64,000 bases of DNA, from assembly GCF_037042905.1 (NCBI RefSeq), contig NC_087245.1, positions 2,048,001 to 2,112,000 on the forward strand, in the 5' to 3' direction. This stretch comes from Lytechinus pictus (lineage: Eukaryota). Below the pieces are notes generated by a model. It made no database searches and was not told where the DNA came from. It worked only from the letters and a program-made list of their open reading frames with translations. Positions 1,373 through 49,353 of this stretch are shown piece after piece (the stretch's first letter is position 1; each line of letters opens with the position of its first letter). Both the position numbers and the translations under genes were made by a program.

Positions 1373-4300
1373 GATCAACAAGAAGAAATCTAGGAGACAT
1401 TCAAATCAGAATTACATATAGTTGCTCTTCAGACAAATGCCCATCCCTTCACTCCGTAGTAAACAGTGAAGTATTCAATCACACCTAGTATGCTGTTGAT
1501 AAAAGTAAAGGTATTTCAAACCTACAATTATCAATAGAAAAAAGAAAATATTTCCAATACTACATTAGTTGTTTATCTAATATCCAAGGATGAATGGAGT
1601 TGATACACAGAGAGAGAGAGACAAATGCTTCCAACAATGGATGGTACATGTAGATGGTAAAACAATACTCAATCTACTTCTCTCTGCTTATATGAAAATA
1701 CCCTGTATTCAGATTTTCACAACACCTCGGCGACCGTCAGCTGCCCTTGTTCATATTTGGTTTAGAGATGTGTCACACTTTACCATTCAATCCAGATAAG
1801 TTTAAAAAAACATCAGCCCTGGACAGTTTCCCATGTCATGGTTCATAGAAATCCTAGTGTGTCTTCCATCCACAACTTCACTATTGAATCTAAGCAGTAG
1901 TTGTCAGAAATACACTAGCAGTATCCCCTTCCAATGCAGTGTCACAAGTAAACAATTACCAGTCTTCAAATTTACATTTCCATCAGTCATATCATATATC
2001 TGTGGTATAAAACCAAATATGACATTTTGTACATCAATGCTTGCACACTTCAGCCGAGTAGAGTCCCCAAACCACATTCCATACCATATTTCAAACAATA
2101 AAGATTTCTCATTAATCCTGTATTAAAGCTATCATAAATTAAGGACTTCTCAAGTTCCACAGGTAAAGCGGTGTACGTGTAAAATGTCAAAGGCACAATG
2201 CTATTCACTCTCTGTTCACCATTCAAAACGTTGAGAATGCAAACAATCCGTCATTTCACCACTAGAGGATAGAGATATTAGCCCAGATGTAATTAACTCA
2301 ACCTTTCTCATCCACTAGAGTGTAACGCCATCTACACCAATGCGTTGACATATATCAAAAGAATGTAATGCATCATTATGCAGCTATACACTGTATGTGA
2401 CATATGACTAAAACTGAAACATTTCCTAAATAATGATTTTTTTTCAGATGTCATGTTTCTTCTGTCTTACATGTAGGAATAAAATATTATGCATTAAAAA
2501 AATCACAAAGGAGGTTTAATACGTAGACTACAATGCTATGAATGTCATGTCTATTGGATCATGGAAGGTCCATGATTGGACGATAACTAATTCGCAGATG
2601 CAACCCCTTATGTCAGGAAGTGAATGCAGAAAACAAAAGCAAGTATTTGTTGGCGTTCAGTGGTTTTGATTCTGATTCCTCTGATTTTGAAATGTTTTGA
2701 AAGCCCAAATAAAGCTTTGGTAAATGTGAATTCATCAATTATTACAATCATACAAAGATGAAGTGGCCATTGAATCTCTTTTCAACCATTAAAATTCAAA
2801 TTTGGAATTGCTTTGTACATTATTTTGCATTATCTCTCTGTATTACTTTTCTTTGAGTACTCAGTTAGTAAATTTTAATTGCAGTTGAACTAGAAAGCTA
2901 AAAATCAGCCAGCTTGACAAGTGGTTTTATATTTAAAAATGACAAAAATATGCAGATATCTTATTTTTAACCTGATCAAAATAAATGTTTATTGAAAATC
3001 ATAAAAAAAAATATATCCCCTGAAACATTACATTTAATACCATTCGCATAATTGTTTAGTGCATATGAATTGCAATAATGACACCCACCTTCTGAGGATT
3101 TACCAAAACCAAAGATACAATTTTAAAATGTCTATTCAAACATTCATTATTATCTGTGTGATTTGCTTATGATTATGAGATCCAACATTCACATCTTTAT
3201 TTAAAATAAGTCTTTTGTTAATACTTTTATTTAAAATTAAAAGCTACATGGAATACAGACAATAAAGGCATACTCAAATGAAATTAGAGTCAACTCAATC
3301 AAATATTAATAGACCCTGATATATCCATTCAGGTTGATAGCTTTAGAAAAATATTGAAGCATGCTTAACAAATCAACTCAGTAGCTTTGATATCATAGAA
3401 GCTAATGTCTGTCTTCTAATGCATCTCATTTCTGATGATTGCTAATACACTGTTTTTTTAATCTTTTTTGTCTCTCGTGTACATTACATGTATATCGTGA
3501 GTCTCAAACTCTCAGTCGATTTTAATATTGAAAAATGCCTTGATACAAACCTTAAATAGCAAAATAACCTCCTTGATCCACATCCAGACGAATGTTATCT
3601 ACATTGTATATTATGTACATGGAAAACTTTGCAGCATCTGATTGTATCAGTATCTTGAAAATCAGTTTTCCAGAATCTGAAAGACGATTCCACTTTCTCG
3701 AAAATAGTTCTGGCTCTTTGACAATAACTCTAGGATGTTTGCATTGGACTTTTTTCATTGCGCATCAAACTCAACCTCTATGTCCTTGCATGAAAAAGTG
3801 ACAACAGATGGATCGATCAAGATCTATTGTGATTGCTTCAGTGGGTCTATTGTTATCTGTTAAATAAACCGATATTGATCCTTGGTGGGAAATTTATTGT
3901 TATTCTGTACATGTAAGGAAAAGTAGGGAGATGATAATACTTTCAAGTATGAGAACGGGTACAACTAAATCCTGATTTCTATCATATTTTTTGTACAAAA
4001 AATTGTAATGAGTCATTGTTTTTAAATAATATATAATTTTCCCCTCTTTGTTCACAAATGGAATATTTCGAATGATATATAAGCTTCATATGCACCTAAA
4101 AATCAAGGCGAACAAGATGTACTCCTGTTTATGATAGATGTATACTGAAGGATATAAATTCCAGTTCATATAAATATTGAGAATCTATTACAAAATTAAA
4201 TTATAAAGCTACATGTACTTGTTGAATGAGCAATAATGTGTTAACAGCTTTCAAATATTTTAATAAACAAATCACTGGAAATTTCAATGATATAGTGAGC

Positions 4301-7300
4301 AAAAAGTTCGAAATTATGAAAGTCAATAATTGAACCAAATTGGTGATACATAAGTAACCCATTGAAGATAAAGAGGGGTGACTCATGAAATATCTGACAT
4401 TTTCCATGAATTCTCGCAGGATCATTAATGTATTGTACATACATGTTATTCCCTGCACATACATGTACACACGTACATGTAGGATAAATGTGCATGATAA
4501 CTTCTGAATTTCATATTCAAAGAAATAATGATTCCTAGATTATAAGTTTAACCTGCACCCATGTAAGGCATATTAAACCAAATGTTAAGAATATACAGTT
4601 AAAACTACTTTGAAAACTATATTTGCTATTAGACATGATATCCTGCTTGTAAACAGAATAGCAGAGAACTATATATACAGGAAAGAAACATGCTGTCTCG
4701 GGGGGGGGGGGATGATGTTGTGGTCTGGATTTTTTTTAATGTAAAGGTTTCACTGGTACAATCTAACTAAAAGATACTGAACAAGCTTTGGTATAATCAT
4801 GGAAAAATTGTGATTTTTGTGATCTTTTTGCTGATTTGTTCAATACAACGTGAAGACATAAAGTAGGCCAAAGTAATACTGTATCTGTCAAAGGATTGAA
4901 GCTAATCCATTCGAAGGTTTTTATTGAAAGTATCATTATCATGTGTTATATTTTCTTGTAGCAAATCTAGTATCAATGGTGTATTATTGAAAAAGAGAGC
5001 AATCACTGATAACTGGTACTCATGCTACAAATATGCATGTCCACAGACTAGTTTTTAAAGGGAGGGGCTGACCATACAAAAAAACACCATCAAATGATCA
5101 GTGTTTACGTTTTTGTACTTGTTTAAAGAAAAAAGTGGGGGTGAGCGCCTGAAGCCATCCCTGCCCCTCCGCCCCTCCCACTCCTTCCATGTCCCTTGCT
5201 AAGTTGCTGAGGAACCAAAGATGAGAATGCACTATTTTAAAAGTCCTTCTACATTATAGTTGAATTTGAAACTCAAAGGGTAGGTATTCCAGCTCCAATG
5301 CACTGCAGACGCAGACTTTTAGTTTTTCCTACTTTCAGTGCATAATGCAGTCTTAATGTATTGAGACTAGATTTACTCATGGACTGTGGCTGCTGCTTAT
5401 AAAACAAGTATTGGGTTTGGAGTCTAGTCTCTCTACCCTTGACATGGTATTATTAGTTAAAGTGTCAAATTTGAGTCTGTGCTTGAAGACTACATTTACA
5501 TGTGTGTGTGTGTGTGTACTTCAATACCAAGCATTCAGCGTGCCAACATGCATACACACACACACAATCCACAGTGATCTTGGTTTTGTATGCACCAAAG
5601 GGACCGGTATTGTGTGCCAATTTGTGTGCGTATGCTGAGCGTTCATGCAGCTCGCATCCTGTATTGATTCAACGTAGCTACAACCATTTCTGATTGGTCA
5701 TTCTTCTCATGAATATGCAAACATGAAGTGGCTGCCAGCAGTAATACACTGGATAGCCATAATTTTCATTTAAAACCTGATTTTTCACAAATCTAATTAT
5801 GGATATGCATAAATTTTTTTCAAGTTCTTTTATCTAAAGCAACTATACTTATGTATATAAACAGAACCACTGAATACTGGAGGCAATTATATATAAAATG
5901 GTGAGTATAATGGTGAGCTTTGAAACTGGTAACCATACCTATATGGTACTATGGATATCTTCATATACTATTCACTACCCCTCCACATCACTCTGGTTTC
6001 TCTGCAATACGCATAAATCTTTCGCCTTTTACTAAAGATTTCCGTGCAGAGGAACACATTGATGAGTCTATAAGATTTTTCTCCTGCCCAGTGGAAACAC
6101 AGGGCATGCAATACAACAATGTAAAGAAAGAAACAAGCCAACCAAAACATGTTCCTAAAAATGTATACCATTAAAATTTGGAATTTAATTACTATTACTT
6201 GCTTGTACATGCCCACTATAGAGACAGTTAAATAAAGAGTAGGCCTATAAATTAAATTTGTTGGAATATCAGATTTAGTACTCAAATTTTTGGCAAATCA
6301 TTATCATTCTTAGGAATCTCATTTCTCCCAAATTTAGTACGATTTTTATTTCCTTTATTTATTGGGGTACCACTTTTCCAGCTATATTTGCTGTGGAATT
6401 CTGTAACTGTACTGATGCAAGCATAAATCAAAGAGATTTACATGTACCATTACTGTACTGAAAGAAGTCATTGATAAAAATCACAAAGGCCTACACATAC
6501 AATGGTACATACATGCACAGTATTCAGATATCCTAATGAATTATGGATGCTGCAAACTGGAAATTTTTTATTATGAAATTGTGGACTTCATGGACTTTTA
6601 TGTTCAATGTATATCCTTTTTTTTTAATTGAAAAACATTATAATGGTACATTAGCTATTGCATTAAATAAAGATGAGTTACAAGTTTAAAATAATGAAAT
6701 TGATCAGATAGATAGATAGAAAAATAGGTTTATTAAAAGATCATCGCAGCCAAAGGCCGAATTGTGATCAGTTTTACAATCATGCAAGTTACATACATGT
6801 ATAAAGTTTTCATACAAAGTATCATAACATTTTCTGAATGATACACAAACCTATATGTAATGTGATCTTAGAAGACAAAAAAGAGTGTCAGAGGAGAAAA
6901 AGATAGGTGAGTGAAAAGCAAACTAGACGAATGAAAATGGAAGTCGTGAAGGTGTAAGGAAGTAAATGGAGAGAATGGAAAAGAGAGGAGAGAAAAGGAG
7001 GAAAAACTAATGTGAACAAAGGAAGTAAGATTATAGGTAGCATGGTATTTCTTAATTTTTTTAATCCATATTCATAATCGTCTATGACTCTTATGAATGG
7101 AGGCAACCATATTGTGCACACTTGTCACAGCAGCTTCCTTGAGATCACAACTAAATTACAGTCAGACCAGCTCTGATCCTAGCCTCCCCTTCTCCGAATC
7201 ATTTTATTATTTGGACACAAACTTGCCGAGATTTTTTTTTTTCAGTCTAGTATGTGGGGAAATGAGATTTCAATCTAAAATCAAAATTCCTATGCAAGCT

Positions 7301-8085
7301 CACTTTGATTACATACATTTTCCAATATAGTCTACCTACAACCACATTATTTTTTATGAAAAACATCAACACATGCCTCGCGGGCTCAGACCTTTGTCAT
7401 CTATCATGTTTGAGCATACAGCCAGTATAAGAATGGCTGACTTTGCGACGCTGCGATGATCCAATTTTCAAACAATTCATTCTCTTTTTTTTCGAGGTAC
7501 ATGCCGGGGGTACATGTATGCTCGATGTATTCATTTCAGCAGGTAAATTATCTAAGAGTTTTGGCAACCGATCGATTTAATGTCCATAAAAAACGCCTAT
7601 GATTTGCACTGACAGCAGTGAAATACTGTCTGTGTACGCCCACTACATAGATTACGCGTAGCGACCGTGCATTGGGGAGGCAGCTCCCAGATCAGGATGA
7701 ATCCCTTATCCAGATTGGTGGTAGTCCCAACGTGTCCGGATAAGAGAGGTCGGACTTTACATGTAGTGTATGCATCTTCTGAGGCGAAGATCATGCAGGT
7801 GATATTCATGCAACTTCCAACTATACATAGGTGGTTTTGATACACTTTCACAAATTCTGTTTTAATACCACACAAGGGTATCTGATAAAAGGAGAGGTAT
7901 TGCCATGAATATAGAGTCATCTGATAACTGAACTAATGCGACATAGTCATTATACCGTACGGTATAATGACAATTGTCTTTTTAATGTAGAATGCAATTT
8001 GATATGTATTTGGTAGATATACATGTATATGATACATGATAGGAATTTGGTTGTGGGATGGTGAAGCACAACACACTCTGCAAAA

Positions 8086-8820
8086 CTAAACTCCTCAAAA
8101 AAAGTTTGGAAATCTGACTTTGATCAATAGTCCCTCCTCGGTTTTAGTGAATATTAATGTGTGATTGATATCAATGAATAGATCATTTATTGTCTTTAAA
8201 ATGACACCCTACATGATATGATTATGGTTCACATGGAGGTGCAGTGCCTTGAAATGTGGGGCAAGGTCAAAGTTCGAAAGTTGCAAAATGACACAGTATT
8301 CAAAGTCACTGTTCTTTTTTCTGTGGTGATGAGTGAGTTTCTCAGCGATTTCTTTTGTTTTCATGCACCTTAACATCAACATTAACATGAAATCAAACAC
8401 ACGTCTGCACAAGCGAACACATAACAAACAAACATGCATGGGTATTTCAAAACACGACTCAAACCATGTTAAATCTCACAAAACCATCACTACATAAACC
8501 AAAACAAAACATATAAAATGAAGAAGCAGGGGCTTGATTTGCATGGATTTTCATCTCTATTGACACAGACAAAAGAATCATGTTCTTTATTGACCCTTCA
8601 TGACGATTTCTGCTCGTTTTGCAGCTTTTCAATTCAGACCTCATCCAACACTTTTGAATCCTGCTCTTTTCTTGATGGCATGATTATAACAAGCATGGTA
8701 TCATTTTAAAGAAAATTAAATGATCTTTTGAATGATATCTAATATGCATTGTGTAAAATTGGGAGTTGGGAGGAATTGATGGCCAAACTCAGATTTCCAA
8801 ACTTTTTTGGAGGGGTTTAG
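8086..8820. mobile_element. Non-autonomous TIR element, Tc1/mariner-like
   Basis: ~33-bp TIR ctaaactcctcaaaaaaagtttggaaatctga / tcagatttccaaacttttttggaggggtttag; TA on the right flank. Confidence 0.65.
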
Positions 8821-8886
8821 TATGTATGAAGAGTTTGATAAGAGGACTATAATTAAAGCAGAGCAAAATAAAAATAATAATCTTAC

Positions 8887-9117
8887 TGAAATACTTGAGA
8901 GTCTCCTCCATCATTTCTGATGAAAGGATGTACCGGTCATCCTCATCCATGTTTTGACCAGATGCTACCAATCCGGCCGAGGCAGCCGGTCCCAACCAAT
9001 CATCATGTTCATAGCTATAGTGTGAGGTAGTATCCGCTCGCAGGGTGTAGAGAGGGATCTGCTCTTCAAGAAGACTGATGATCTCCACTTCAGGAATGTT
9101 TGAAGTGTTGTGAAGAT
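8887..9117 (-). CDS. TRAK1: TRAK/Milton (trafficking kinesin-binding protein) exon, N-terminal part of the HAP1_N domain
   Basis: Translates (D)LHNTSNIPEVEIISLLEEQIPLYTLRADTTSHYSYEHDDWL...EMMEETLKYF, matching the TRAK/Milton PEVEIISLLEEQ..Y.LRAD..HDDWL..EETLKYF signature. Polypyrimidine-CAG acceptor, GTAAGA donor, phase 1-1. Confidence 0.93.
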
Positions 9118-10228
9118 CTGACAGAGAGAGAAAAAAAATTGAAGATATTTTCTGCCTACTGGATCAATTATATATTTAAAAGCAGCTTGGGGACTTTATA
9201 GCAAAGACAATAAGCATGTAACAAATTGCATTAAAAATAGTATACCATTATGATCCACAATGGATTCCTTGAACATCTGACTGAAGAAAATTTCTGTCAC
9301 AAGAGGCTCATTTTTTAAAAGCAAAAATATTATTGTCTTCATGACATTATTTTGGAGTGTACTAGATTCAACTTTGCCATCAAGTGTTTGATATTATATA
9401 TTTTTTTTAATCACTGAATTTACTGTGAGATGAGTGTTTTGAATCATATTAAAGTGATAATCAAATTGTTGCTGAGCAATTTTCAAAAATTAACAGTTTC
9501 AAACAATGGGTCTACCCCACAAGCCCAGATGTACTTTGATTAATTCTGAAAAGAAAAAAATATTACAACATGAGGCAAAAGGGGTGAAGGAAATAGTAGG
9601 ACAATTATTTGATTTTATAGTTGCAGGGATGGTATACATGTAAATTTTCAATCATAAATAAACATTTTGGACGAACCCTGAAAACAATTTTTTGTTTCAA
9701 CTGAGAATAGACTGAGTACGATGTCATTTTGAAATCATTACCAAGATTGGCAGTTGACTCTAAAATGTTGCCATGCCACAATGCACATGTATCTTCTCTT
9801 TTCCCCCATTTTCCACTCAGCCCCTTTTCTATTTGTAATTACCGGTACCCCCATCTTCTTAATGCAACTAATCTTTTTTCTTTTGGTCTCCCAGTCACTC
9901 TCTTGCTTTCTTATCCCTCACTCGCAAGAAAAATAGCCTGCCCAAGTTCAAGCCAAAGCATGTTGCTAGGGGAACAGCAACGTCAAGAGTGCATTAAACT
10001 GAATTGATTTGCTAGTTCAGTCTCACGTCCCTGGTCAATCCAAAGGGACTCTAATGGTATTCACATGATGTAACAAAATATCACACATAAAGTGCAAACC
10101 TTCACAAGAATCGTTCAGCTACTGGGTTACTCGGTCGTTAGTTTGAAAATATTTCAGGAAAAACCATTGATATGTTCACAAGTGTTCCTGATCATGCACT
10201 TCATGATGTATCTTTACTAGCAGATTGC

Positions 10229-10822
10229 TTAAAGGGGAATGAAACCTCTGGAATAAGTACGCTTGTGTCGAAACAGAAAAATCAAAGAATAAGAACAAAG
10301 AAAGTTTGAGAAAAATCGGACAAATAATGAGAATGTTATGAGCATTTGAATATTGCAATCACTAATGCTATGGAGATCCTCCCATTGGCAATGCGACAAG
10401 GATGTGTGATGTCACATGTGAACAACTTTCCCTTTGATGGACTATAAAATAGCCTCAAAATGTCTATTGAACTGCTTTTTCTTGTGGTGATACAAACTCT
10501 TTATCCATGATGTATTCTTTAAAAATCTGTATTACATACCCTCCGATAGAAAGAACATATGATCTACTGATAGATGTGATAAAAGAGGCAATTTAAGTGA
10601 AATATATACTAAAGTAATGGGGAGAGTTGTTAACAAGTGACATTGCACATCTTTGTCGCATTGCCAATTTGAGGATCTCCATAGCATTAGTGATCGCAAT
10701 ATTCAAATGCTCATAACTTTCTCATTATTTGTCCAATTTTTCTCAAACTTTCGTTGATCTGTTTCTTTGATTTTTCTGTTTTCACACAAGCTATCTTGTT
10801 TCAAAGGTTTCATTGGCCCATT
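10229..10822. mobile_element. Kolobok/T2-like MITE (TTAA-AGG end, long internal inverted repeats)
   Basis: ttaaaggggaatgaaacc ... ggtttcatt; same family as 38119-38688. Confidence 0.7.
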
Positions 10823-12039
10823 ACAGTGAAGGTAGTGAGGACATGTTAGAAATCCAAGTCACAAAATGCTTTACAATAAAATGTACATGTAGGAATGTTG
10901 AATGCACGCTTGTAGTTTACAATGTCTCAAGTACTTTGCTCCATGTACACATTGGCATAGACAGATCATTCCTTTCTTACATGTAGTATCCCGCACAAAA
11001 TCACAAAACTATGACAAGACACCATAAAATCACAAAACCTCTTGGTAAAAGCCTTATTGCATACTATTGACTCAGTTATCTTTGACTTCTTGTGAAATCA
11101 AGTCCAGATCGTTCACATGAAATCAGATGAAATCAGGTGCATCCTTCCAATGCTTATAATACAGAAGAGGCATCCATTTCAACGAGACACTGTCAAAACA
11201 AAGCGATACTCCTTGGGTCTCTATCTTCCGATTGACCACACAACAAAGGCAATTTTAGCACTTTCAATGCAAATCACGCTTTTCCGCTGTGAATCTCATT
11301 TTGAGCTAAAGGTACCTTAGACGCACACACATGTACGCATCTCCAAATCTCTTGCCAATGTGTTTCCAATGCATCCACGTGTGCAACCAAGCCTCATCAT
11401 TTCGTCATCTGTCTCTATGATACATGATTCATCCTCCCCATCCTAGAACCCTATCCTCTATATACATGTAGTAGTCTACAACTAGACTTCAATTTCATAG
11501 CTATGAAAATATATTGTACAATGTTTTGTACAGATTTAAAACCTTTGTGGATTTAAAGTGTGAAATATAAAAATTCACAATTTACTTTCAAACAGGAGAT
11601 GATCAATGGCCTTGCAATAACAAAGGTATTCTGTTGATTTCTGAATTCACACAATAAGACCAACTGTATCTTCAACAATAAATAGAAAAATATAATTCTT
11701 GGTATTTCATCACAAAAAGAATTTTACAAAAGACAAGTGCACATAGTATCTCAAGAAGAAACTAAATATCGTCATAAGAGGCATCTATGGTGTCTTCAAA
11801 TAATTTATATCTAAATAAATAGAGAAAAATTCACAGAGCAAAATGTTGAAAATTTCATAAAGATTGGATAACAAATAACAAAGTTATTGAATTTTAAAGT
11901 TTATCAATATTTTGTGAAAACAGTTATATGCCCATCGTCATGAATATTCATTAGGTGGGTTGATGATTTCACATCCCCACTTTCCCTGTTCTTGTTATTA
12001 CATGAAATCATAATTGTTTCATTTTTTCATACATTTTGA

Positions 12040-12450
12040 AACAAGTGGGATGCCTCTGGCGGTCTCACCTGCATCACGCAATTCAATATAACAGCAGTGC
12101 TGACTTTAAACTACAGAACTATAAAATAATTATTCACAAAAAACACCAATCATATGATACAATACTACATTCATTGATATTTGACCTTGATCATGTGACC
12201 TAAAACTTGTCAGTGATACTTGATTATCCCGATATCCACATTTTATACACTATATCTATAGACTTTGAAAGTTATGACAGCAATCTAATAATTACCTCTA
12301 AAATGACCAAAGTTCAAATACCTTAAATGACCTTTGACTTTCGTCATGTGACCTGAACCTCGCATGAGATGTTCAGTGATACTTGATGAATCTTATGTCC
12401 AAGTTTTATAAACTAGACCAATATACTTACAGACTTATGATGGTAATTCA
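12040..12450 (+). mobile_element. Partial Helentron/HINE-like element with TGACCTTTGA repeats
   Basis: Shares the aacaagtgg.atgcctctggc.gtctcacctgcatc start and internal repeat with 26037-26997. Confidence 0.65.
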
Positions 12451-13920
12451 CATTTTTCTTCTGCTCTAACAGCTTTACATTTAAAAAAAAAAAAAAATCT
12501 GGGGTCAGTTTTAGTCATTTTGGGGGAGGGGAAACTTACATCAAATTATGCCATATTGTAGACTGATTCTTGTGCAAGTTCAGAGCTGCCTATTCTGTAT
12601 AGATGTGTTACCATGACAACATACTCATTGACATGAACTGTGATATACACAACCCCCAGTGCCAATTACCTTGGGTCTGATTTATATCAGTTTGAGTAAT
12701 AAACACCCAGTGATATACAGTTTATTTATAAAGTAACATTAACAACTTTCACATGGAGGGACGGGGTAATCTGACTGATTGAAATTGTATGATTTTACAT
12801 GTACAGTACAGGAACCCTTTGAGAAGAAAATTAAACACAAATACATGTATTGATGAGCTCTAAATTTTGGAAAATCATGATTCATGTCTGTTTCTTCTTC
12901 TCTTATTTTTTTTTATCAAAGAATATGTTTTAGGATTATAAATAGAAATGATACAAACAAGGAAACTATATGTGAATGTTTAAATAAAATTTGAAAGATG
13001 GATTTTGGAGCAAGGCATGATTGATGTTAGTGATATTGAAAGGAGCTTTCATTTGAAACCATTGTTCCTGATGATATGCCTGATATGCCATCTTCTAACT
13101 CAAGAGGGCAGCATTCCAGACTCTGTGAGAGATGGATAAAGGTACATAATGTAATAGCCTTGAACATGCTTTGAACATGTTGAATAACTTGAGCATGCCT
13201 TTGGACCTAGTCATGTAGCCCTCTCAAGGCCACCCACCACACAACTTACGACTGCTCCATGATCTTATTTTTGGCACAAATCGCATTTTGCTCATTTTCA
13301 GAGAATGTGAATGAAAATTATCTTATTTGAGGTAAGAGTAAATGGAATAAATTTGAATGATTGCAAGCCTTTACTTGTGAGTAAATGCCAAATTATATTC
13401 AAATTGTAGCCAATCGTACAACTACTATGACGTCATTACGAATACGGTAGATATCAAATTCGCTTTCTGACGATGATAGCATAGTCACAGATTTGAACAA
13501 AGGGTATTCGTACAATGATTTAGAACATTACACAGTAAGATATTCCATGTCTCAATATTCGCGTCAAATACTATATTTCATTCCAAAATTGGGTCACAGA
13601 CCAATCATAACGTGTGTGGTAGCCTTAACATGTAAATTGGAGGAGGTCATTCTAAAACAAAGTTCCTTGATGACAAAGCGGGCAGACTAGTGAGTACATC
13701 ACATGCTGACATGCAAACTGTAAACAAAAGCAAGACGTATTCGGTAATAATGAAGAGAAAATACTGAAGGAACAGGTGGCAGGTCTAGAGAATGCTACTC
13801 AGAAAGTGGAGAAAGTGCTAGCATTATATAAGTCGGAATCAAATTAATGATCAAGTAGCTGTTCATATGTTTAAACATGTTTTATTTATAAAAGATATCA
13901 TTATTTATGTTGATAATAGC

Positions 13921-14050
13921 AATGCTGATGATGATGATGATGATGATGAAGATGATGATGATGGTGTTGATGTTGATAATAATGCTGACGATGATGGTTA
14001 GGATGATGGTGGTAACTGTAGTGATGATGATGACTGTAATGATTATAATT
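13921..14050. repeat. Degenerate (GAT)n microsatellite
   Basis: gatgatgatgat... tract. Confidence 0.9.
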
Positions 14051-14062
14051 ATAGTGTCACAC

Positions 14063-14309: not shown

Positions 14310-14352
14310 TGATGATCATAATAAGGTAAGATTGAAATAATAATTAACCAAC

Positions 14353-15424: not shown

Positions 15425-15427
15425 TGA

Positions 15428-18030: not shown

Positions 18031-20439
18031 CACAACAAAAAAAGTAAGTCCCCCCTTAAACAAACATCCATAATTTCCTAACCAATGCGAGTTTTTAATA
18101 CATTTTTACATGAGCGTGTAGGTAATTTCATAAGCTACCCTCTGAGTAAATGTCATGGACGTATTTTATGTCATGCTTCAGTGAGCTTCGCCAGAAGGCA
18201 AAATTGTCACTTTTCAAAAGTCACACGCCAAATATCATGATTTTGATTCCACTTTATTGGAACGAATTCCACATTCTCATCATGAAAAATAGTCAGAAGG
18301 CTTGTAAAAGACACTACTTTCTAAAAGACGATACAAGGTTTTTGTTAAATTTCACAGTTGAATAAACACAAGTTAAAATTTTCTATAATTGGAGTTTATT
18401 ACACATTTCTATCGATAAAAATGATCTAATATGATGACAATTATTTTTGGGAAGAGTATTTTCAACAATATTAATCATTTCACGAATCAATGAAAATTAA
18501 ATGAAAGCAAAAAATACGAATTTCAAATATCATAGGCAAGTATTGTTTCATTTTGGTAACTGAAATAATCTTTCCTCAACTTTTTTTGTTATGTTCATGA
18601 CCATTTAACATGCTGCAATGATTCAAATGCGTTTAATTAAACATTCACGCCTGAATGAACATGTGGAATGCGATTAGCTCTTTTTTTCGTTATTGGAAAA
18701 AATGCAATTGCTAACTATGGATATTTGTCACAAACCTCCTTGCATCGTTCATTTAATGTGATTTTTATGAAAATCCCGATGTTTAATGCTTCAGTGAGCA
18801 CACAATATTCGAAAATTATGCAAATGAGAAGAAAGTTTAAGGACTTAGCCCCACTCTGTGCCATATCGAATGATTATTTTGGTGTGCGCGCCTTTCGGAT
18901 AGTGTTAATCTAAAGCTATGTGCGAAGTTTCATGAAGAAATTGTTGGCAGAAGTAACAAAAACCGTCCATGAAACAAACCCTCATTTCATTTTTGTTAAA
19001 ATTTTGACTTCCTCTCTCATAGACATTATGTAAACTATGGGTGCATATGTTTAAGAATAAGTGACCCCTTATTCAATATGGTGGAACTTTTTTTCAAGGC
19101 TGTCTTTAGTGATGTCATTTAGCAGTTATATTTATCAACCTATGGGCAGAATTATGTGCAAAAATGAAATCGATATGTTTATTCATGGATGAGTGAGCAT
19201 GCATCAAAGTGGGCAAAGAGGCATTTTCAATGTCACAGACTCATTTTGAGGGGGTAATGAAGGGAATAATGGGGGCAAATTTGGTTTCAAACGTGACTTA
19301 ATTGCTGTTGTTTTTATCGTCCATCAGTTTTATCACCACACACTTCCGAACTTTTAGCATTTTCATGGTTGAGCGAGCACATTCGAAAACTTGGGAATGA
19401 ATACTCTGTATACTGCATAAATGCAGACCTTCATTTTTGAGGAGCGCGATCGCGCCGGCGCTCCTACCGCGCTCCTAAATAAAAATACGGAGAACAAAAA
19501 ATCGCGCTCCTAAAAAAAAATTAAAAAATTGAAAATTGCTAAAATTTCATATTTTACATCTCAGTTGAAAACTATCAGAAAAATGAAGAATATTCACCTC
19601 TTTCCCGACTCTTGTTTTTAATTCAAACTCGGTAAATATTGTAGTCTCATATATGTAGATTTTTATGGCAACACCATGGAAGTCTACATGTGGGACTACA
19701 ATATTTACCGAGTGTAAGTTCAGATCAGAGTCGGAAAAGAGGTGAATATTCTTCATTTTTCTGATAGTTTTCAACTAAATCAAAATAATTTCAAGGAATT
19801 ATGGAAAAAAAAAAAATTTAAAGCAGGAGCGTGATATTTTGTAAACGTATTGACCCAGGCCTAGTTTCACCACAGATTAATTAATAGCTACACAGCTATT
19901 GCATATATATACAATGTTAAGAAAAAAATCTACAATCTATCATACTTGAATTGATTTGAGCTCCTCAAGGAGAGCGATTCTGAGGAGCTCAATTGAGCTC
20001 CTCAAAAAAATAAGGAGAGCGATTTATTGAGCTCCACGAAATTATAAACGTGAAGGACTGTAAATGCATCCTTTTCCTAACAATTTCTCAGGATCAGTTG
20101 AATTTATGGACAAATCAGTGGTGGATCCAGAATTTTGAAATGGGGAGGGGCTGAGTAATTGGGGGAGCGACCAACATTTTCCAATTATAACATGTTTTAA
20201 CAAGTTGTATAGGGGACACTGCCATAAACCCCTATGATGATACGTCACAAAACATTGTGCTCACTCAACCATAAACATACGATATCAAAATTTGTGTGAA
20301 GTGGCTAAATGATGGATAGTAAAACAGCATTAACACCATAAAATTCACCTAAACCACCTACGAAATATCATATTTAAAAATTATTCCGTTCAAAAGTTAC
20401 AGCAATTTGATTTAGGGGGGACTTACTTTTTTGGTTGTG
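18031..20439. mobile_element. Non-autonomous Tc1/mariner-type element with CA...TG ends
   Basis: TA|cacaacaaaaaaagtaagtccccc ... ggggggacttacttttttggttgtg|TA; no transposase ORF seen. Confidence 0.85.
19424..20060. mobile_element. Nested TIR element with 6-bp TSD (taaatg), hAT-like CAG ends, and an internal ~215-bp palindrome (19563-19776)
   Basis: taaatg|cagaccttca ... tgaaggactg|taaatg; subterminal gaggagc repeats. Confidence 0.7.
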
Positions 20440-20519
20440 TATACATGTATATTCAACAGTGTATAATGTGATTGTTTTCCCCCCATTTTTAAATTTTTTA
20501 AAGAAGAACACAGTAGACC

Positions 20520-21045
20520 CTGGGGAGGGAGGGGGCAGTCAATGATTCAAATGTATTGCTGTACACATGCGTGACCAAATTATTATACCCCCTATTAAAC
20601 GAGTTTTTCTCTGTGTGCAAAATAACCCCCTAAACAAGTTTTTCATAGGCTTCATTTACACATTTTGGCCCCTAAACAAGTTGTCGCCAGAATATGACCC
20701 CTAAACAAGTTTTGTCTCGGGCCCAAAAACTTTTCAGAAATGAGGAAAAAGCCCTGAGGAAAAGCTTGGGGAAAAAACATATCCTAAACACGTATGGCTA
20801 GTCTTAAAAGAAAGGTTTGGAAAAAAAACATGTACCCTTTATGTTTGACCCCGCGATTGACCATTGACCAGTCTTTCAAAACCACCCTTTTTTTAAAATC
20901 AGTGTTTTTTTATACCCTTAACGAGTGCATGCGCGGCCCGCGGCCAAAACTGAAAAAAAAAAACTTTAATATCAAACACGTTTTCTTGGCCATGCATACA
21001 TGTGTACAGCAATATATTTGACTGCCCCCCCCCCCCCCCCCCCCG
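20520..21045. mobile_element. MULE-like MITE with G/C-run TIRs
   Basis: 9-10 bp TSD acagtagac(c) at 20510 and 21046; TIR ...gcagtcaa..tattgctgtacacatg. Confidence 0.75.
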
Positions 21046-22655
21046 ACAGTAGACCAAGTTCAGACTTCAAAGTCAGAGGAAGTCCTGATTTCTGAACCTG
21101 AAGGAAATCCTGAGATTTCCCTTCATTATGTATTAATGAACCCTACTTGCTACTACAGTTACTCAGGATCAAGCTATACCCGAGCCCCTTCCCATTAATC
21201 ATATTTCCAGGCAACACACTGCACATGGGTGTTATTGCAAATCAAGTGAATTCCAACAGCAGTGTACATGTACATGTGTAGATGGCTGATCAATCATATT
21301 TGATGGAGGTGTCTCACAAAACCCTGAAATGGAGATCTAAGGAACTGACTACAAGATCTACAGTGGTGAAGAATTAAACTTATCTTCCATATTACATGTA
21401 GTCCAGTTTGGCCATTGATAGAGGGTAGCTTCATGTAGGCTACATTGTACATGTACCTTTCCCAGAACCAACATAGGGAATAACACATGAGCTGAGAGGA
21501 TTGTCACTGGGTTAGGCAAGTCGGCTCTGGCAAAGCTAACTTCCCTCTGAACTACTTCCGCAAGGGCAAAGTACTCTAAATGTTCCTTAAGTTCAAGTTT
21601 GTAATAAAGTAGCCTAACTTCATTCTTCAAAGGTTACTCGTGGCCACACTATATGGCTCATCAATGACAACTGGTCATATCATCTCCCCACATGTAAAAT
21701 GTGTATCGATATGGACATACATGTATAGCCTACATCTACATGTTCAGTATAGGCCTCCATCATAAGTGGTCCAATATTTAACATAAAAACTAAAAAGATA
21801 TGGAAAAACATCTTTAAAAGTGTACACATGTAGGCCGACAAGTACAAAAGAGTACCAAAGTGTGACATCAATTTTCACTTTTTGCATTTCAGTGTTTTTT
21901 ATATCATATTTTGGTAGAGCATGATAACAAAAAACCACAACCCAAATTTGGTGAGAATCAGTCAATGGGGTCCCAAGATATGACCTCATGAATATGTAAT
22001 TAGCCCCATTGAAGTGAATTATTACTGGCCTGGTTCTCAAAGTTAGAAACCAGGCCAATTGACTTCAATGAGGCTAATTATGTATTCATGAGGTCATATC
22101 TCAGGCCCCCATGGACCGATTCTCACCAAGTTCTGGGTATCAAAATCGCTAAAATGCAAAAAAAAAGGTTTTGTGACGTCATCACTTCAGTACCATACTC
22201 TATTACATACATTGTATGATTTGTAATGTTCTACTGCTACATGGATGTTTGTGTATTTCATGTATTGTAACCACACTGTATTATCCCCGCACAAATTTTC
22301 ATAAAATAATTATTAAAAATAACACAAACACTAACAACAACAAAACACATACCTGTACAGGGAGAGATACGTACATGTACATGTAGAGACAAAGTCTTTA
22401 CACAACAGCATCTCTGTACAAATACATTTACGTTCTTAATAAATATGAAATGATATATTCTAGGAAGTCAAGGTTTCAGTCAACTCGGAAAAACAACAAT
22501 GCACTCAAAATTACAACATCATTTATCCCCCCAAATACATGTACTTCCTCAAATCGCAGTATACAATATGTCTATGCATACACTTCCAAATGAATACTGT
22601 CTGTATGTCTGCCTAATGAAAATACTCCTACTCAAGTCATTTCAAAACTTCTTTA

Positions 22656-24301
22656 AGCCCCCTTTACACCAGATGAAGTTCCCGCTATGTTGTTGAAATT
22701 CAAAAGAAAACCTAGGACCTGGCAACAAATTTGTTTGATTTCCTCGAACAATGTGAAATTGTCAAGTGCATGCTGCGTCCGTGCCACGTCCTTGTCAATT
22801 TTGAACTAAGTTTATTCTGCGCGCACAAGCGTTCCATGCTGCGAAATGATTCCCACTACGTTCGGACTACCGTACATCCAGCAAATGACACAATTTGTTG
22901 TACCTTGTCTATTTGGCATAGCTCCAACTGATACCCCCATTACACCAATGCTACGTCCATGCAGCTCTCGCTGCATCAAAGAAAAATGACTATGACGCAG
23001 TGGGAACCGCTACAGCATACTGAGAGCAAAGCGAGAACTACATGTATTATTGACTTGGCATAGTCTTCATTAGACCAAAAGCTTCGGTCTCTGTTACATG
23101 TATATTGGTTGTTCTGCTGAACTCCGTTGGCTCCACTCACCAATTACAGAGACCGTAGTTCTAACTCAATTTGTACAGGGACTCAATGGCAAAAGAAGAC
23201 AAGTTAAAAAAAAAACCTGATAAAACCATTTTTAAAGTAATAATTACTGTACATAACCTAGTATTATGAGTGCCATAATGATATTTGGACTCATTTCTTA
23301 CCCTAAATTCCCGCCTTGAAAGAAACTGATTAAAATTAATATCTTCATGTGATTCTAATCGTTTGTTGGACTATGTAAGCTGCCATGATGCCATCTTGGT
23401 TCTGAAAATGATGACAGACTCCACCCACGGAAATAAAAATGCTTTTTTTTTCTTTTTGGTGCATTTAAGGCCATAACGAAACATTAATCTTTATTTTGGT
23501 CCAGTTCTTTTTATATATTTTATGAAATAAGGACAAAATCATTTTTTTTGTATTGTTAACCCCCTAATGGCGGCTGCACGATCGTGAGCCATCTGTGTAT
23601 GAGGAGAAATGTAAAAAAATTTAAAATGTTAAAAAAACTCCTCAAAAAAGACGGCTGCCAGCTGTCTAAGTCTGCATGATCTCCACAGACCAAGTTTCCG
23701 CCACATATCCAAAGTCCAAGTAGCGGAAACCGTTTCGACGAAGTATGGACCGCTTCTTCGCCCACAATAAACCTAGTTCAAAACTGACAAGGACGTGGCA
23801 TGGACGCAGCATGCACTTGACAATTTTATATTTTTTTATAACATCAAATGTTAGCACCGCATCCTAGGTTTTCTTCAGAATTTCAACAACGTAGCAGGAA
23901 CTTCATCTGGTGTAAAGTATGTAGTGACAACGGAATATGCTTAGCGGCCGTGCAGTAGACATAGACAGAGTTGTTGCTAGTTCTTTATATTCCACCATGT
24001 CTATGCTACGTCAATGGAGCTGTTAATAGTAGGTGTCCTATGATGGTCCTTGCTGAGTCATTACTACATGTACGCGCTATTCAGATGGCGCTCCTGCTAC
24101 GTGGACTTTGCTTTGGACATGTTCAAAGTCCACGTAGCGGAAAATGGGTCTCCGGAGATCATGAAGACTACATGTATGCCACATCACTGACATTTCTCAG
24201 AACGCTCTCAGTACCCTGATGCAGTTCCCCACTGCATCACGGCCATGTTTTGTTGACGTAGTGAGAACTGCATGGATGTAGTGTTGGTATAAAGGGGGTA
24301 T
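22656..24301. mobile_element. Harbinger-like MITE containing an inverted copy of its own family (22931-23917)
   Basis: Outer ends agccccctttacacc / ggtataaagggggtat; inner ends atacccccattacacc / ggtgtaaag; A-B-A'-B' inverted-repeat pattern. Confidence 0.65.
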
Positions 24302-25632
24302 TATAGACATCACAAAGATAGATATTAATTTTTCAATCCTGGCCGAGAAACTATTTTCTTGTTTAAAAAAAATAGTAAGATAGCAAATAGGACCTCCCTC
24401 ATCACTGCTCTCGAAAAACCTGGACGATCAACTACTTTCTTTTTTACTTGGCCTAAAAGGAGTAACAAAGAGTAGAAGTCAACCAGTTAATATTGCAACT
24501 CACATCTCTATGTCGAGTGTATGATTTATGAATCCATCGTGTTGTACTACCCCCAGCCAGTACAAATGATACATGTACATAGCATATCTGTACATCGTTC
24601 TTGTATTTGGAGTAAAGGCCTCTCAATCCAGAGACAATAGCAAAATAAGACGGGTATGAGTCAGATTGCAAGTTCTCACTATCAGGGGCCAGGAGTTTAT
24701 TTGTAGTGTGTTACATTTCACTGCATGAAAAATTGAAGATATCCCAATAATAATCAATAATTCATTAGCATAACTGCAAATGCCTGGAACCAAAATAAAA
24801 GCATCCAAAGTCCCTAAATACTGTACAAAAAAAAAAAAAAGAGTCCCAAAATGTCAGACATTTGAACACTAAAACAATATTTTGCACATGCCCATGCACA
24901 CAATCTAACTGTTGAAACAGGACTGTTCCTCACTTGGAACATAAGTTTTGTTTTAATCTTGCAGAATTACATACTTTAATAGTAATACATGTACATGTAG
25001 ACTGTCCATACTTCCTTAGGTCACAACTCTTTTTAGAACAGTATACCAAGTCCTTCTGAAACTGAAAGTGCACTCTGTGTTACTTCCTGTGGCGACAGAC
25101 ATGTAATGCTACTTGTTAACACTTTAACAAGCTCAGCCTAATCCTGCCATCTCATTCCTCGCCCTTTTTTATCCCCACATTCCTCCTTTCTTAATCCCAA
25201 ATAACCCTACTTCTTGAATATGTGACTCGATCATTCAACATTGTAATTCAGAAGCACTTGATATGGTGTACTCAGCTAGTAAAATATAAAATAAAAACCC
25301 AAACCAAAGCTAAAAGCAAAGTTGACAGAGCTGCCAACCTTGTCACCAAATATTTGTTTTTCCAAAAAAAAAAAAAAATTTCAATCTCCCATCTTTTTTA
25401 AAAGAATGTATTTATTGACCTTTGTCATGCAGCTTTTTTCCAATACATTTGTTATTCTGAAATCAATAACCTCTGGGGTAAAATGTAAGTGGTTAAAAAA
25501 GAAAACAATTGGATCACCTCTGGCAGTCTCGCCTGCATGAGTTATTCAATATAGCAGCACTGCCAACTCTGAAAGTAACTAGAATATTTTTTCCCAAAGA
25601 GGGAAAAAAACATTCATTTCATAATTACACAC

Positions 25633-27676
25633 CCAGGGGGGCCACTTCCATTGACAAGTGGATACCGTGCGTGACCAAAAAAAAATATGTAAAAAGGATC
25701 CCTTTTTCAAGAAAGGGCACGTTACCGTACGTAAAAATTCTCTCTGAGTACAATTTTGTTCAAATTTGATAAACTTTATCCTATTCAATTTGATTGAAAA
25801 AGATGTAAAAGAACGTCCAGTTGATTTAATACGTGAGGTACAAACAATAAACATCAAATGAACAACAATAAATCAAAATAATCATTTAACAATCAATAAC
25901 AATCAAGAAAAAATAAACAATGTTAAACATTAAATGAATTGGTAAACAAGCAGGACAAACTGCGATGCAAAACCATGCGTTAAATCATGAAAAAAAAGAA
26001 TGGCTCTCAAAAACTGAAAATGGCTCTTGTAAAATGAACAAGTGGAATGCCTCTGGCCGTCTCACCTGCATCACGCGATTCAATATAGCAGCAGTGCTGA
26101 TTTTGAAAACTACTATAACTCGCACAAGATGTTCAGTGATACTTGGTTACTCTTATTTCCACGTTTTATGAACTAGACCAATACACTTATAGAGATATGA
26201 TGGCAATTCAACAAATACCCCCAACGTGGCCAAAGTTCTTTGACCTTACATGACCTTTGACCTTGATCATGTGACCTGAAACTCGCACAGGATGTTCAGT
26301 GATACTTGATTACTATTATGTCCAAGTTTTATGAACTAGACCAACACTTTCAAATTTATGGCTGTAATTCAACAAATACCCCAATTTGGCCAAAGTTCAT
26401 TGACCCTAAATGACCTTTGACCTTGATCATGTGACCTGAAACTTGCACAGGATGTTCAGTAATACTTGATTACTATTATGTCCAAGTTTCATGAATCAGA
26501 TCCATAAACTTTCAAAGTTATGATGGTAATTCAACAGATACCCCCAATTCGGCCAAAGTTCATTGACCCTAAATGACCTTTGACCTTGGTCATGTGATGT
26601 GAAACTCATGCAGGATGTTCAGTGATACTTGATTAACCTTATGTATAAGTTTCATGAACTAGGTCCATATATTTTCTAAGTTATGATGACATTTCAAAAA
26701 CTTAACCTTAGGTTAAGATTTTGATGTTGATTCCCCAACATGGTCTAAGTTCATTGACCCTAAATGACCTTTGACCTTGGTCATGTGACATGAAACTCAG
26801 GCAGGATGTTCAGTAATACTTGATTAACCTTATGGCCAAGTTTCATGAACTAGGTCCATATACTTTCTAAGTTATGCTGTCATTTCAAAAACTTAACCTC
26901 GGGTTAAGATTTGGTGTTGACGCCGCCGCCGCCGTCGCCGCCGCCGTCGGAAAAGCGGCGCCTATAGTCTCACTCTGCTATGCAGGTGAGACAAAAATGG
27001 CTCTCAATTTTTTTTTTAAATGGCTCCCTAATATTGAAAATTAATTTTTACACTGGTAATAAGGGTGTCAAAAAAACAAGAGTGTCGCTACTTAAGGCGA
27101 GCACATAATACGCCCACCTGCAACGCGGAAAATGGAGCTATTGGTGATTGGTCAAGCAAGTGGAAGGTGGCGACTTCACCTTTGACCTTCTGACCTCAAA
27201 ATTAAAAGGCTTCCTGTGATCTATGCTAGTATCATACACACCAAATTATATGAGCCTAGATTAAGTTCAACTGAAGTTATCGCATTTACAAGGACTGCAG
27301 AAGGGTAAGGTGAAAACATGTCACTGTGACCTTGACCTTTTGTATAAAAAGGGGTATATATTTCGCTAGGAAACGTGTTTACAGTCCAATTTGCGAGGGT
27401 ATAAAAAGAATAAAATATCTTCTTGCCCCAACACTACGTGTTTAGGGTCCGATTTGAGCGAGGTGTGTGGGGTGGAACTAAACCCAATGAAAGTAAAGGT
27501 AAAGCCGATGTCCCTGACCTAACCCCTCCTTGTTAAGGGTAGGGTTTCACACGCCAATACTTGTTAAGGGGGGCATTTTCAGAACATGGAAAATACTTGT
27601 TTAGAGTGCTTTTTGAAACCCCATGGTCACGCATGGTATCCACTCATTAATGGAAGTGCCCCCCCCCCCCCCCAGG
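25633..27676. mobile_element. TIR element of the CCGGGG-ended family, hosting the 26037 element
   Basis: gccacttccattgacaagtggatacc..gtgacc / ggtcacgcatggtatccactc..aatggaagtgcc; another end of the family at ~30620-30665. Confidence 0.7.
26037..26997 (+). mobile_element. Helentron/HINE-like element with internal ~160-bp TGACCTTTGACC tandem units
   Basis: Sub-terminal IR gtctcacctgcat / atgcaggtgagac, GC-rich hairpin cgccg..cggaaaagcggcg near the end, A-run flanks, no TSD. Confidence 0.75.
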
Positions 27677-28580
27677 AGTACACAGCACAAACACATGTAT
27701 CAAAAGTTCATTACAATATTTTGTAACCAAAAATACTATTACCATACAATACAGTTGCAATTTATTTTTCATTAGTAACTTGGGGATCTTTTTTTAATTC
27801 ACCAGAGCGCTCAAAAACTTGAATTTGGGGCATATTTTTGTGTACGCCCTCCATTGGTGGAAAGTAATATGGCAAGAAAATTGTAATTTTTCAGAAAAAA
27901 AAATAATTAAAAGAATCAAATTTATTTAAGAGCCAAGTTATATGATGAATAGCTGTAATGATAATGGCAACTGACAGTGTAAAAAAAAATCAAGTATTTG
28001 TCCAAAAGAAAAAGAGAAATATGCCAAACATTGCTAACCTTATTTTGCCACACACGTCTACACAGGGAGTACCAGTAACTTTGTCTTCTAGTTTTAACTA
28101 ACAGAGTCTCAGACTGAGTCAGAGAACAACTTGGTTACCATGCCTGGCCCCCACTCAGTGTTATTTAGGGTACGCCTATGCTCGTTCCCTCCCTTTCCCC
28201 TACATGTATCTCATGTCTGCCAAAATTTCTGAACCCCCCTATCGCGGGCTTTTCCTGCCTTGGAGACCCCTCTAAATCCGGAACACTGCTCAATGTACCG
28301 CCCTATCTAGGGTGAGCTCTCATTCCAACCCCCTATCTCAGGACAGACAACCTCCCCTTCATCTCAGGTAAGCTGTCACTACAATAGAGGTTCCATGATG
28401 TCATGATGGAGGACAAAACAATAGCAAAACCATGAAAACAATGACATTTCATAGTCTGATGCACAGGCTTTTATTGTTTGTCCTCCAATATGGCTGCTTG
28501 TGGGAACCCTCTATATCTTAGGAAAGATTCTTGAATTTCTCAGGAGTCCAAAGAGAGAGAAAAAGAAAAAACACCCCTTT

Positions 28581-29166
28581 TTAAAGGTCAAGTCCCCCCC
28601 CCCCCCATGAAATTTTTTATTTGTGTCGATAGAGAAAAATCAAACATGCATAACACTGAAAATTTCATCAAAATCGGATGTTAAAAAGAAAGTTATGACA
28701 TTCTAAAGTTTCACTTATTTTCCTCAAAACAGTTGTACGCACATGTCAGTGATATGCATGAGAAAGTCGATGTCCCCCACTCACTGTTTCTATTGTTTTT
28801 TGTTTGAATTATACAATACTTCATTTTTTACAGGTTTAACAATAAGTACTTACTACACTGAACTATAAAATCTTAAAACAATGGTAATTCCACATTTTCA
28901 TGGATGAATAAAACTTTATTTCACAGGACAATGAAGAGAAAATTAGAATATCTAAATGCTTCATATAAATCACAGGACAATGAGGAGAAAATAAGAATAT
29001 TTCATGCTTCATATAAAATTAAATCACATTACAATGAGAAAATTGGAATATGACATAACTTAATAATTTTACATCCGATTTTGATGAAATTTTAAGTGTT
29101 ATGCTTGTTGGATTTTTCTCTTTTTTATTCAAATCAACTTCATGTCGGGATGGACTTGTCCTTTAA
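28581..29166. mobile_element. Kolobok/T2-like MITE
   Basis: ttaaaggtcaagtcc ... ggacttgtcctttaa. Confidence 0.8.
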
Positions 29167-29741
29167 AGAAATATCAGGGTGAAAAGTCAAAATCAAATAG
29201 ACAAATACACCCCTTTTTTTACAATTCGCGGGCCGAACTTGTCCCGCGACAAAGTACCCCTTTATAGGACATTTTGGGAACACGCATTTGGTCCCTCCGA
29301 CAGAGGGGGGGGGGGGGGCCGGAGTTACATGTATGTATCATCATAACCTTGTAGTTGTATTGTTCATTTGAATAAGTGGATCATCATCATGACTTCATTA
29401 TATTTATAATGATTATTGATTATGTCTATCGATCTTGACTTGATGATGATCTTGTCTGCCTTTGAGTTTGAATCGGCGATAGGGATCATTGTAAAAAATA
29501 TCGAACTAGTAGAAGTCTAATGTTACGTCCCTTCTTTATTCCATCCCATATACGCGTATCCGAGATGCAATTTTTATCAGCATGCTAGGTCTAGCTGTCA
29601 ACCGCCGGGTACAGCGCGGCGGATAGCAGCTAGGTCTAGTGTCAACCGCCGGTTCGCGGCCCGTTCCTTACTCTACAAAGTCCGCAAGAAGTTATGCGGA
29701 GTTAAAGTGCTAGCTAACTCAAATTGAGTCTCGATACTTAC

Positions 29742-49324: not shown

Positions 49325-49353
49325 GTAAAAAAGCAGACCTTCCCTGTATCTAA

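Follow-up and report, generated by a model that had tools for sequence, protein, structure and literature searches.

Why should a single eight-letter word crowd into one part of a chromosome and be almost missing from the DNA beside it? The question is raised by a 64,000-base stretch of the Lytechinus pictus genome (contig NC_087245.1, positions 2,048,001 to 2,112,000; hereafter the window), in which the octamer TACATGTA occurs 45 times in exact form: 43 times within 1645-29333 and otherwise at 44129 and 45849, with no exact match in 29,334-44,128 or in 45,857-64,000. A sequence-only reading of the window had counted about 43 copies by eye between 1645 and 29326, had seen none at 30-43.6 kb or 54-64 kb, and had taken the word for a Tc1-type excision footprint that saturates the body of the gene TRAK; exact counting bears out the number and the gaps. 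Our analysis covered the window with 100 kb on each side (264 kb, in which negative coordinates denote bases left of the window start) and a second region of 60 kb, for a total of 324 kb. The answer to which we give about even chances is that the copies, which we call scars, were left by excision of TA-inserting elements with CA...TG ends, through repeated short-range hopping within a bounded 5' intronic domain.

A dense patch in the long 5' introns of TRAK

Across 100 dinucleotide-preserving shuffles of the window, TACATGTA appeared 1.41 times on average and at most 5 times (0/100 reached 45). Markov models of orders 0 to 5 trained on positions 1-30,000 expected 1.0, 0.9, 1.8, 3.1, 8.4 and 21.1 copies, compared with 43 observed, so that the enrichment holds over a background that takes CpG depletion into account, the comparison by which the sequence-only reading had proposed to judge it. 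For 30,001-64,000, the models expected 0.6-1.2 copies and 2 were observed. The 45 copies lie in unrelated flanking sequences and therefore do not constitute one repeat family. Genome-wide (812-Mb assembly), there are 224,046 copies of TACATGTA (0.276/kb) versus 85,448 copies of its letters in reversed order. The doubled form, TACATGTACATGTA, is present 9353 times and the other phase of the same hexamer repeat 2537 times, 3.7-fold fewer, which marks the unit as TA-bounded and sets it apart from a simple microsatellite. All four of the iterated forms previously listed for the window are present (Table 1), and there is no triple scar in the 264 kb around it.

The dense patch extends to the left of the window. 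Over the 264 kb, it runs from -13,929 to 29,326 and holds 60 scars in 43.3 kb (1.39/kb), compared with 43 scars in the other 220.7 kb (0.195/kb), and scar density within it forms a flat plateau with abrupt ends. TRAK is a minus-strand gene here; we mapped it by means of an echinoid TRAK protein, to which the query exon is 91% identical. The open frame of the most 5' coding exon found contains no in-frame ATG, so a further upstream 5' exon is required; the only CpG-rich stretch at the right edge of the patch is a candidate for the TRAK promoter or first exon. The exon encoding the HAP1_N region is followed by a 24-kb intron, and the other exons are packed between -15,268 and -37,096. The earlier placement of the patch boundary at the first exon of TRAK would hold if the CpG-rich candidate is that exon; the most 5' coding exon found lies inside the patch, at 14,354-14,494. 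The patch occupies three long 5' introns of TRAK and not the entire gene (5' introns versus 3' part, p = 1e-8, per-TA Fisher test).

The TRAK 3' part is CpG-depleted at least as strongly as the patch, and the window between 52 and 60 kb is CpG-depleted yet free of scars; other CpG-depleted stretches carry 0 to 0.44 scars/kb. Because the TRAK 3' part and the 52-60 kb interval are nearly scar-free, the patch is neither a gene-body footprint nor a methylation footprint. We also tried the CpG observed/expected ratio (o/e) as a predictor of scars and rejected it: over 81 bins of 4 kb the rank correlation is not significant (Spearman rho = -0.14, p = 0.22), and the relationship is hump-shaped and driven by two patches, this one and the one described below. 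The proposal that scars track methylation or CpG depletion is therefore not upheld.

The 3' part of TRAK also contains a tandem array derived from a TRAK exon, at about -28,400 to -32,700, with ~44 copies, a 98-bp period and a CpG o/e of 0.04. Each 98-bp unit translates like TRAK residues 466-494, but as 98 is not divisible by three, most copies cannot be in frame.

Six letters inserted at TA, and scar TAs used again

If the word arose by insertion, related copies of the same DNA should include some with an empty TA, whereas a word that arose by CpG decay should have relatives reading TACACGTA or TACGTGTA. We examined paralogs for this purpose, using comparisons within the 264 kb and alignments of short genomic pieces of repeat copies. 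Five of the 103 scar sites in the 264 kb have a paralog across the site within that region, three of them clean (15752, 15815 and 93934) and two too diverged to use (45849 and 144483). At all six sites with usable paralogs (15752, 15815, 23039, 23095, 28201 and 93934), paralogs lack exactly six letters, and the letters at the empty site are TA in five cases and TG in one. The paralog of 93934, in the right flank of the window, shows a clean 6-bp gap at TA. The six letters of scar 23039 are absent from 4/4 paralogs, in which TG stands in place of the TA that the window copy would have carried before insertion. At 23095, the sequence in 6/8 paralogs is TGT-TA-TATT, with the six letters missing; of the other two, one has the same scar and the other a different 6-bp insert at that TA. 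The precursors TACACGTA and TACGTGTA were seen in no paralog at any of the six sites, and together they occur once in the patch. The word is thus TA plus CATGTA, an invariant insert that is foreign to its site. Since paralogs are empty at TA and never carry TACACGTA or TACGTGTA, the alignments indicate a 6-bp insertion and not CpG decay, an origin that is excluded as far as paralogs show. This was the second comparison that the sequence-only reading had set for its proposal, there framed for orthologous sites, and on paralogs it comes out in favor of insertion. In DNA reads from a relative, most pieces of which are 90-95% alike and whose depth stems mostly from repeats, no indel falls at a scar among the best-supported 12 of 331 indels.

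In the repeat at window positions 23071-23190, a single TA is the site of TACATGTA in two copies unrelated to each other and of a different 6-bp insert, TAATGTTA, in a third. Some TAs were struck repeatedly and independently.

Scars are also closer together than chance would place them. When scars were put at random TAs, the patch was expected to contain 0.45 gaps of exactly 6 bp and 7.8 gaps shorter than 100 bp; it contains 6 and 17, respectively, and 3/5000 simulations reached 17. Close pairs are joined by the linkers TA-CA-TA and TA-CAG-TA, and CATG follows the TA of a scar in 37/344 flanks, compared with 4.3 expected. The excess of CATG beside scars, together with the linkers between close pairs, indicates that the TAs of scars were used again.

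The patch holds ~19 one-letter variants of TACATGTA over background in addition to its 60 intact copies, which suggests a divergence of ~4% per site. Some scars lie in repeat copies with 83-93% identity to paralogs; the young 2.4-kb element at 18029-20441 has none. Scar activity can therefore be dated between these. We considered the age of the DNA as a cause of the patch and rejected it: a young transposon makes up 4.7 kb of the scar-free DNA at 29.4-44 kb, and the other ~10 kb is scar-free as well. The even spread of a second TA-bounded word, described below, is a further reason to reject it.

The young element at 31,726-36,410 is of hAT type, with an 8-bp duplication (GGCGCAAT), ends beginning CAGTGGCG and 97-99% identity to other copies. 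It is interrupted by a TTAA-flanked piggyBac-like element that is 85-94% identical to its own copies.

A control word and a second patch

Comparison of all TA-N4-TA words in the 264 kb identified an internal control. The TA-bounded palindromic octamer TAGGCCTA occurs 22 times where 1.4 copies are expected, the flanks of its copies are unrelated, and at 44642 a paralog 479 bases away (the one paralog available) lacks GGCCTA at TA, consistent with a 6-bp insertion here as well. The first patch contains 4 of the 22 copies of TAGGCCTA, matching its 16% share of the length, and 60 of the 103 copies of TACATGTA (Fisher p = 0.0008). In the second region, 4 of 9 copies of TAGGCCTA lie inside a patch that makes up 45% of the length. 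Because TAGGCCTA is evenly spread, neither the age of the DNA nor general accessibility of TA explains the patch, and the patches belong to the history of the CATG scar specifically. Two further words are in excess in the 264 kb, TACCGGTA (7 versus 1.0 expected) and TAAGCTTA (13 versus 3.0). Copies of TAGGCCTA often stand directly beside CATG (7/62 flanks versus 0.8 expected), as in TACATGTAGGCCTA at -3808.

The second region, C1:3,820,001-3,880,000, was picked for its cluster of double scars, with its gene content unseen beforehand. It contains 69 scars, 61 of them in 27 kb (2.26/kb), and a TGF-beta-receptor-type-1-like gene on the plus strand, for which, as for TRAK, the nearest named protein is echinoid. 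As in TRAK, the scars fall in the 5' introns (Table 1; p = 1e-5 versus the 3' part and p = 6e-8 versus upstream DNA). The patch starts 3.9 kb into intron 1 and stops in the middle of intron 3, 3.1 kb ahead of the next exon, and patch edges therefore do not fall exactly on exons. In both of the patches examined, the scars occupy long 5' introns within a transcription unit, and the patch gives out close to the 5' end of that unit. The link to genes drawn by the sequence-only reading is sustained to this extent, that both patches lie inside a transcription unit; its extension to the gene body is not, as the 3' 21.8 kb of TRAK contain only 2 scars. Within the first 4.1 Mb of the contig, double scars fall into about 7 groups.

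Two other features of the TGF-beta-receptor-1-like gene were seen. A 2.7-kb segment with four scars is duplicated in intron 2 (local positions 31,594 and 34,308), and a Kunitz-domain exon, 100% identical over 105 residues, lies at local positions 42,504-42,818 and is the first coding exon in one named isoform.

Table 1. Scar-bearing intervals, gene parts and transposable elements in the window and the second region (window coordinates; TIR, terminal inverted repeat)
Feature	Position	Strand	Length	Scars	Remarks
Window part of dense patch	1..29333			43	TACATGTA
TRAK upstream intergenic			13.5 kb	0	
TRAK first long 5' intron			14.9 kb	25	
TRAK second long 5' intron			5.2 kb	6	
TRAK third long 5' intron			24.2 kb	29	
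TRAK 3' part			21.8 kb	2	includes 6-kb intron with 1 scar
TRAK coding exon, most 5' found	14,354..14,494	-			amino acids 3-49 of echinoid TRAK protein
TRAK exon, HAP1_N region	8,885..9,127	-			amino acids 47-127 of echinoid TRAK protein, 88% identical
CpG-rich stretch, right patch edge	29,501..30,000		500 bases		29 CpG, o/e 1.27
Double scar TACATGTACATGTA	16141..16154; also 17944-17957, 22372-22385, 24986-24999				exact match
Scars within ~19-bp tandem repeat	15752..15822			2	adjacent units lack exactly six letters at TA
Scars within old TA-flanked TIR element	23039..23102			2	paralog alignment
Scar within dispersed repeat	28201..28208			1	6/6 paralogs read CCC-TA-TCTC without the six letters
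Isolated scars	44129..44136 and 45849..45856			2	between CpG-rich 43,501-44,000 and first RPS26 coding exon
Internal control TAGGCCTA	6240..6247; others in window at 31995, 44642, 63976				exact match
TA-flanked TIR element, Tc1/mariner-type layout	22665..23914		1.25 kb		ends CACCAGATG...CATCTGGTG (CACC...GGTG), checked end by end
Non-coding TIR element	18029..20441 (with scars 18021..20449)		2.4 kb		in middle TA of double scar; TACATGTA abuts both ends
Tc1-like element, TA-flanked, DDE_3 remnant	50,209..52,125		1.9 kb		ends CACTCGG...CCGAGTG, checked end by end; in intron between RPS26 coding exons
RPS26 coding exons	49,147..49,329 and 52,586..52,720	+			
Second patch, upstream			13.7 kb	2	
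Second patch, intron 1			6.3 kb	3	
Second patch, intron 2			22.1 kb	50	
Second patch, intron 3			4.9 kb	10	all 10 in first 1.8 kb
Second patch, exon-dense 3' part			11.6 kb	4	

The two scars to the right of the patch had been assigned to RPS26. Their positions are correct, and they lie upstream of the RPS26 coding exons, at best in a 5' intron; there are no scars over RPS26 from 49,147 to 52,720. Pfam searches gave no match for 50 open reading frames of 43.3-46.7 kb, and one weak match among 150 of the 275 usable open reading frames of the right flank. Runs of at least 8 C or G are common in this AT-rich window, many of them at transposon ends, and the 8-mer CCCCCCCC/GGGGGGGG, with 70 counts, is among its most frequent 8-mers.

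What made the scars, and what they may record

In the mechanism that we propose, a TA-inserting cut-and-paste transposon would insert and duplicate TA, and its excision would leave behind CA from one end of the transposon and TG from the other, converting TA to TA-CATG-TA with a net gain of 6 bp; by an alternative route, four letters would be kept from an element ending in CATG. Elements of Tc1/pogo type have, as far as is known, CA...TG ends almost without exception; one and the same word would thus be left by many families, which would explain 224,046 copies of a single octamer. The element or elements would have re-inserted tens of bases to a few kilobases from the previous site, often into the TA of an earlier scar, and the hopping would have stayed inside one domain, at TRAK its long 5' introns, with the promoter as one of the domain's borders. 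The clustering statistics and the re-use of scar TAs are what point to a short range. We infer excision as the maker of the scars, local hopping as the source of their clustering, and a chromatin or contact domain as the setter of limits. What limits the patches could be a state of the chromatin in long 5' introns, a contact domain that the promoter closes off, or the break-points of a haplotype block that carries the scars.

The window does contain TA-flanked elements that end in CA...TG, and further TA-flanked TIR candidates with such ends were listed in the 324 kb analyzed; none of those in the window is linked to scars. The 2.4-kb element at 18029-20441 was also considered as the scar maker. 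Its family has ~650 copies in the genome, ~2.05 kb long and with near-identical ends, (TA)TACACAACAAAAAAAGTAAGTCCCCCC, and all 24 ends read are preceded by TA-TA. No transposase-like open reading frame of at least 80 amino acids was found in three copies, the window copy and two longer ones. CATG precedes 13 of ~1300 ends of the family, which is chance level, and we rejected the family as the scar maker; the element is a later arrival and not the culprit. No donor or resting copy was found in or next to the patch, the sole young element there being this one, of a family that is not scar-associated.

Known excision systems share several features with the proposed mechanism. A Tc1/mariner footprint is made by end joining and retains, between the two TAs, 2-4 letters from the start or the end of the element (PMC6943129), and 78% of somatic Tc1 excisions in C. 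elegans leave a +4 scar, TATGTA or TACATA (PMC12632400). As in L. pictus, the Tc1 insertion is at TA and the scar combines the duplicated TA with the terminal CA or TG of the element; the scar is +4 there, whereas here it is +6 with both CA and TG retained (PMC12632400). The earlier identification of a Tc1-type footprint is supported by the TA-bounded 6-bp insertion and the CA...TG elements in the window, but not by the predominance of +4 scars among Tc1 excisions, as those words are unenriched here (PMC12632400). The canonical footprint of Sleeping Beauty, TACAGTA/TACTGTA, likewise places terminal letters between TAs, through a cut inside the element end and non-homologous end joining of the 3' overhangs, but three letters of one end are retained and the scar is +5 (PMC6943129). 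Local hopping is described as a property of Tc1/mariner, P and Ac elements, with ranges of 100 kb for P and 5-15 Mb for Sleeping Beauty (PMC2874221). Re-insertion close to the donor would yield clustered scars as seen here, although the present clusters span 27-43 kb, have sharp edges and would include many re-insertions within 100 bp (PMC2874221). In rice, an excision survey comparing two species found 8/94 sites perfect, with deletions and filler common (PMC4423477). There too excision scars persist as a genomic record, but they are mixed, whereas here a uniform word is repeated throughout one genome (PMC4423477).

Several of these comparisons, and several results from the locus itself, weigh against the excision-and-hopping account. 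The +4 words (TACATA 27, TATGTA 21) show no enrichment in the patch relative to the DNA outside it, and the Sleeping Beauty-type words (TACAGTA 2, TACTGTA 10; 12 in total) are not in excess in the 43.4-kb patch. The scar spectrum expected from end joining is missing, +4 and +5 pieces appearing only as linkers between close scar pairs. No element family is tied to the scars, the sole element that abuts scars on both sides belonging to the chance-level family described above, and no occupied allele, with an element at a scar site, was seen. Minos leaves a net +6 scar made up of the TA duplication and four terminal letters. That route would give the same net gain but would require CATG...CATG element ends here, and the 264 kb around the window yielded no element of that kind save the special case of 18021-20449. 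Published hopping ranges are far wider than a sharp-edged patch of 43 kb (PMC2874221), and a uniform scar, set beside the mixed repair of rice excisions, needs very regular repair (PMC4423477); because the published ranges are wider and the rice scars are mixed, a tight range combined with a uniform scar would be unusual (PMC2874221, PMC4423477). The flat, sharp-edged plateau is more in keeping with a bounded domain than with an unconstrained random walk, and the statement of anatomy rests on the two patches examined.

Other explanations were weighed as well. Chromatin-targeted integration without local hopping would limit insertion or excision to a germline state of the long 5' introns of some expressed genes, a state of transcribed DNA other than the heavily methylated, H3K36me3-type 3' part, and the scars would map that state. 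Both patches do lie in long 5' introns, with few scars upstream (0 in 13.5 kb and 2 in 13.7 kb) or in the 3' parts (2 in 21.8 kb and 4 in 11.6 kb), and the right edge of the first patch marks a switch from CpG-depleted to CpG-rich DNA. We nevertheless consider this explanation rather unlikely, since TAGGCCTA scars do not share the preference, other CpG-depleted stretches have the low densities given above, about 7 double-scar groups in 4.1 Mb is far below the expected number of expressed genes, and the second patch has its edges 3.9 kb inside intron 1 and in mid-intron 3. A change to the excision-and-hopping account that we think improbable would make the edges recombination break-points, with a burst of hopping on one haplotype of which the assembly carries a 43-kb piece. 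The scars look young, at ~4% divergence, and the plateau does end abruptly, but for two independent patches to end near the 5' end of a gene is unlikely by chance unless crossovers concentrate at promoters.

The insertions could also have come from a TA-directed process other than transposon excision, such as a nuclease-and-repair route that adds CATGTA. Such a process would suit the unusual uniformity of the scar, the lack of an identified source element and the excess of other palindromic TA-N4-TA words (TAGGCCTA, TACCGGTA and TAAGCTTA). We give it little probability, as the flanks do not template the inserted letters, a palindromic core is the expected residue of two inverted ends, and the cores CATG and GGCC fit different element families, with different spatial patterns. 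Slippage of a (CATGTA)n microsatellite, or composition combined with CpG decay in a methylated gene body, is by far the least probable explanation. It could draw on a TpG/CpA o/e of 1.32 in 1-30 kb and on the existence of iterated forms, but a fifth-order model of the region itself expects 21 copies where there are 43, the TA-bounded phase is 3.7-fold more frequent than the other, triple scars are lacking, paralogs at 6/6 sites have an empty TA and never TACACGTA or TACGTGTA, and the word is missing from equally CpG-depleted regions.

The same octamer has been reported as over-represented in promoters of Phytophthora (PMC11134190, PMC3520976), an excess of an identical word in the non-coding DNA of another eukaryote, where it is interpreted as a transcription-factor site. 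The scars of L. pictus are a warning that an excess of a palindromic motif outside coding DNA does not by itself imply a binding site. No published description of genome-scale scars of the present kind was found in a full-text literature search, which most subscription journals lay outside the reach of. Excision footprints are usually studied singly, whereas here ~224,000 uniform scars lie in one genome, in sharp-edged patches. The present analysis adds that a patch stops inside the gene, that a second patch has the same anatomy, and that a control scar does not follow that pattern.

If the patches reflect short-range, bounded hopping, they would be a record of transposon activity, of travel distance and of germline domain borders, and the scars would also be a sizeable, site-specific source of intronic 6-bp insertions. 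It is a more doubtful possibility that the scars are a base-resolution fossil of germline organization, in which TA-transposons were confined to long 5' introns walled by the promoter and the exon-dense 3' part. If that were true, scar density would record ancestral germline domain borders in a form that can be read from sequence alone.

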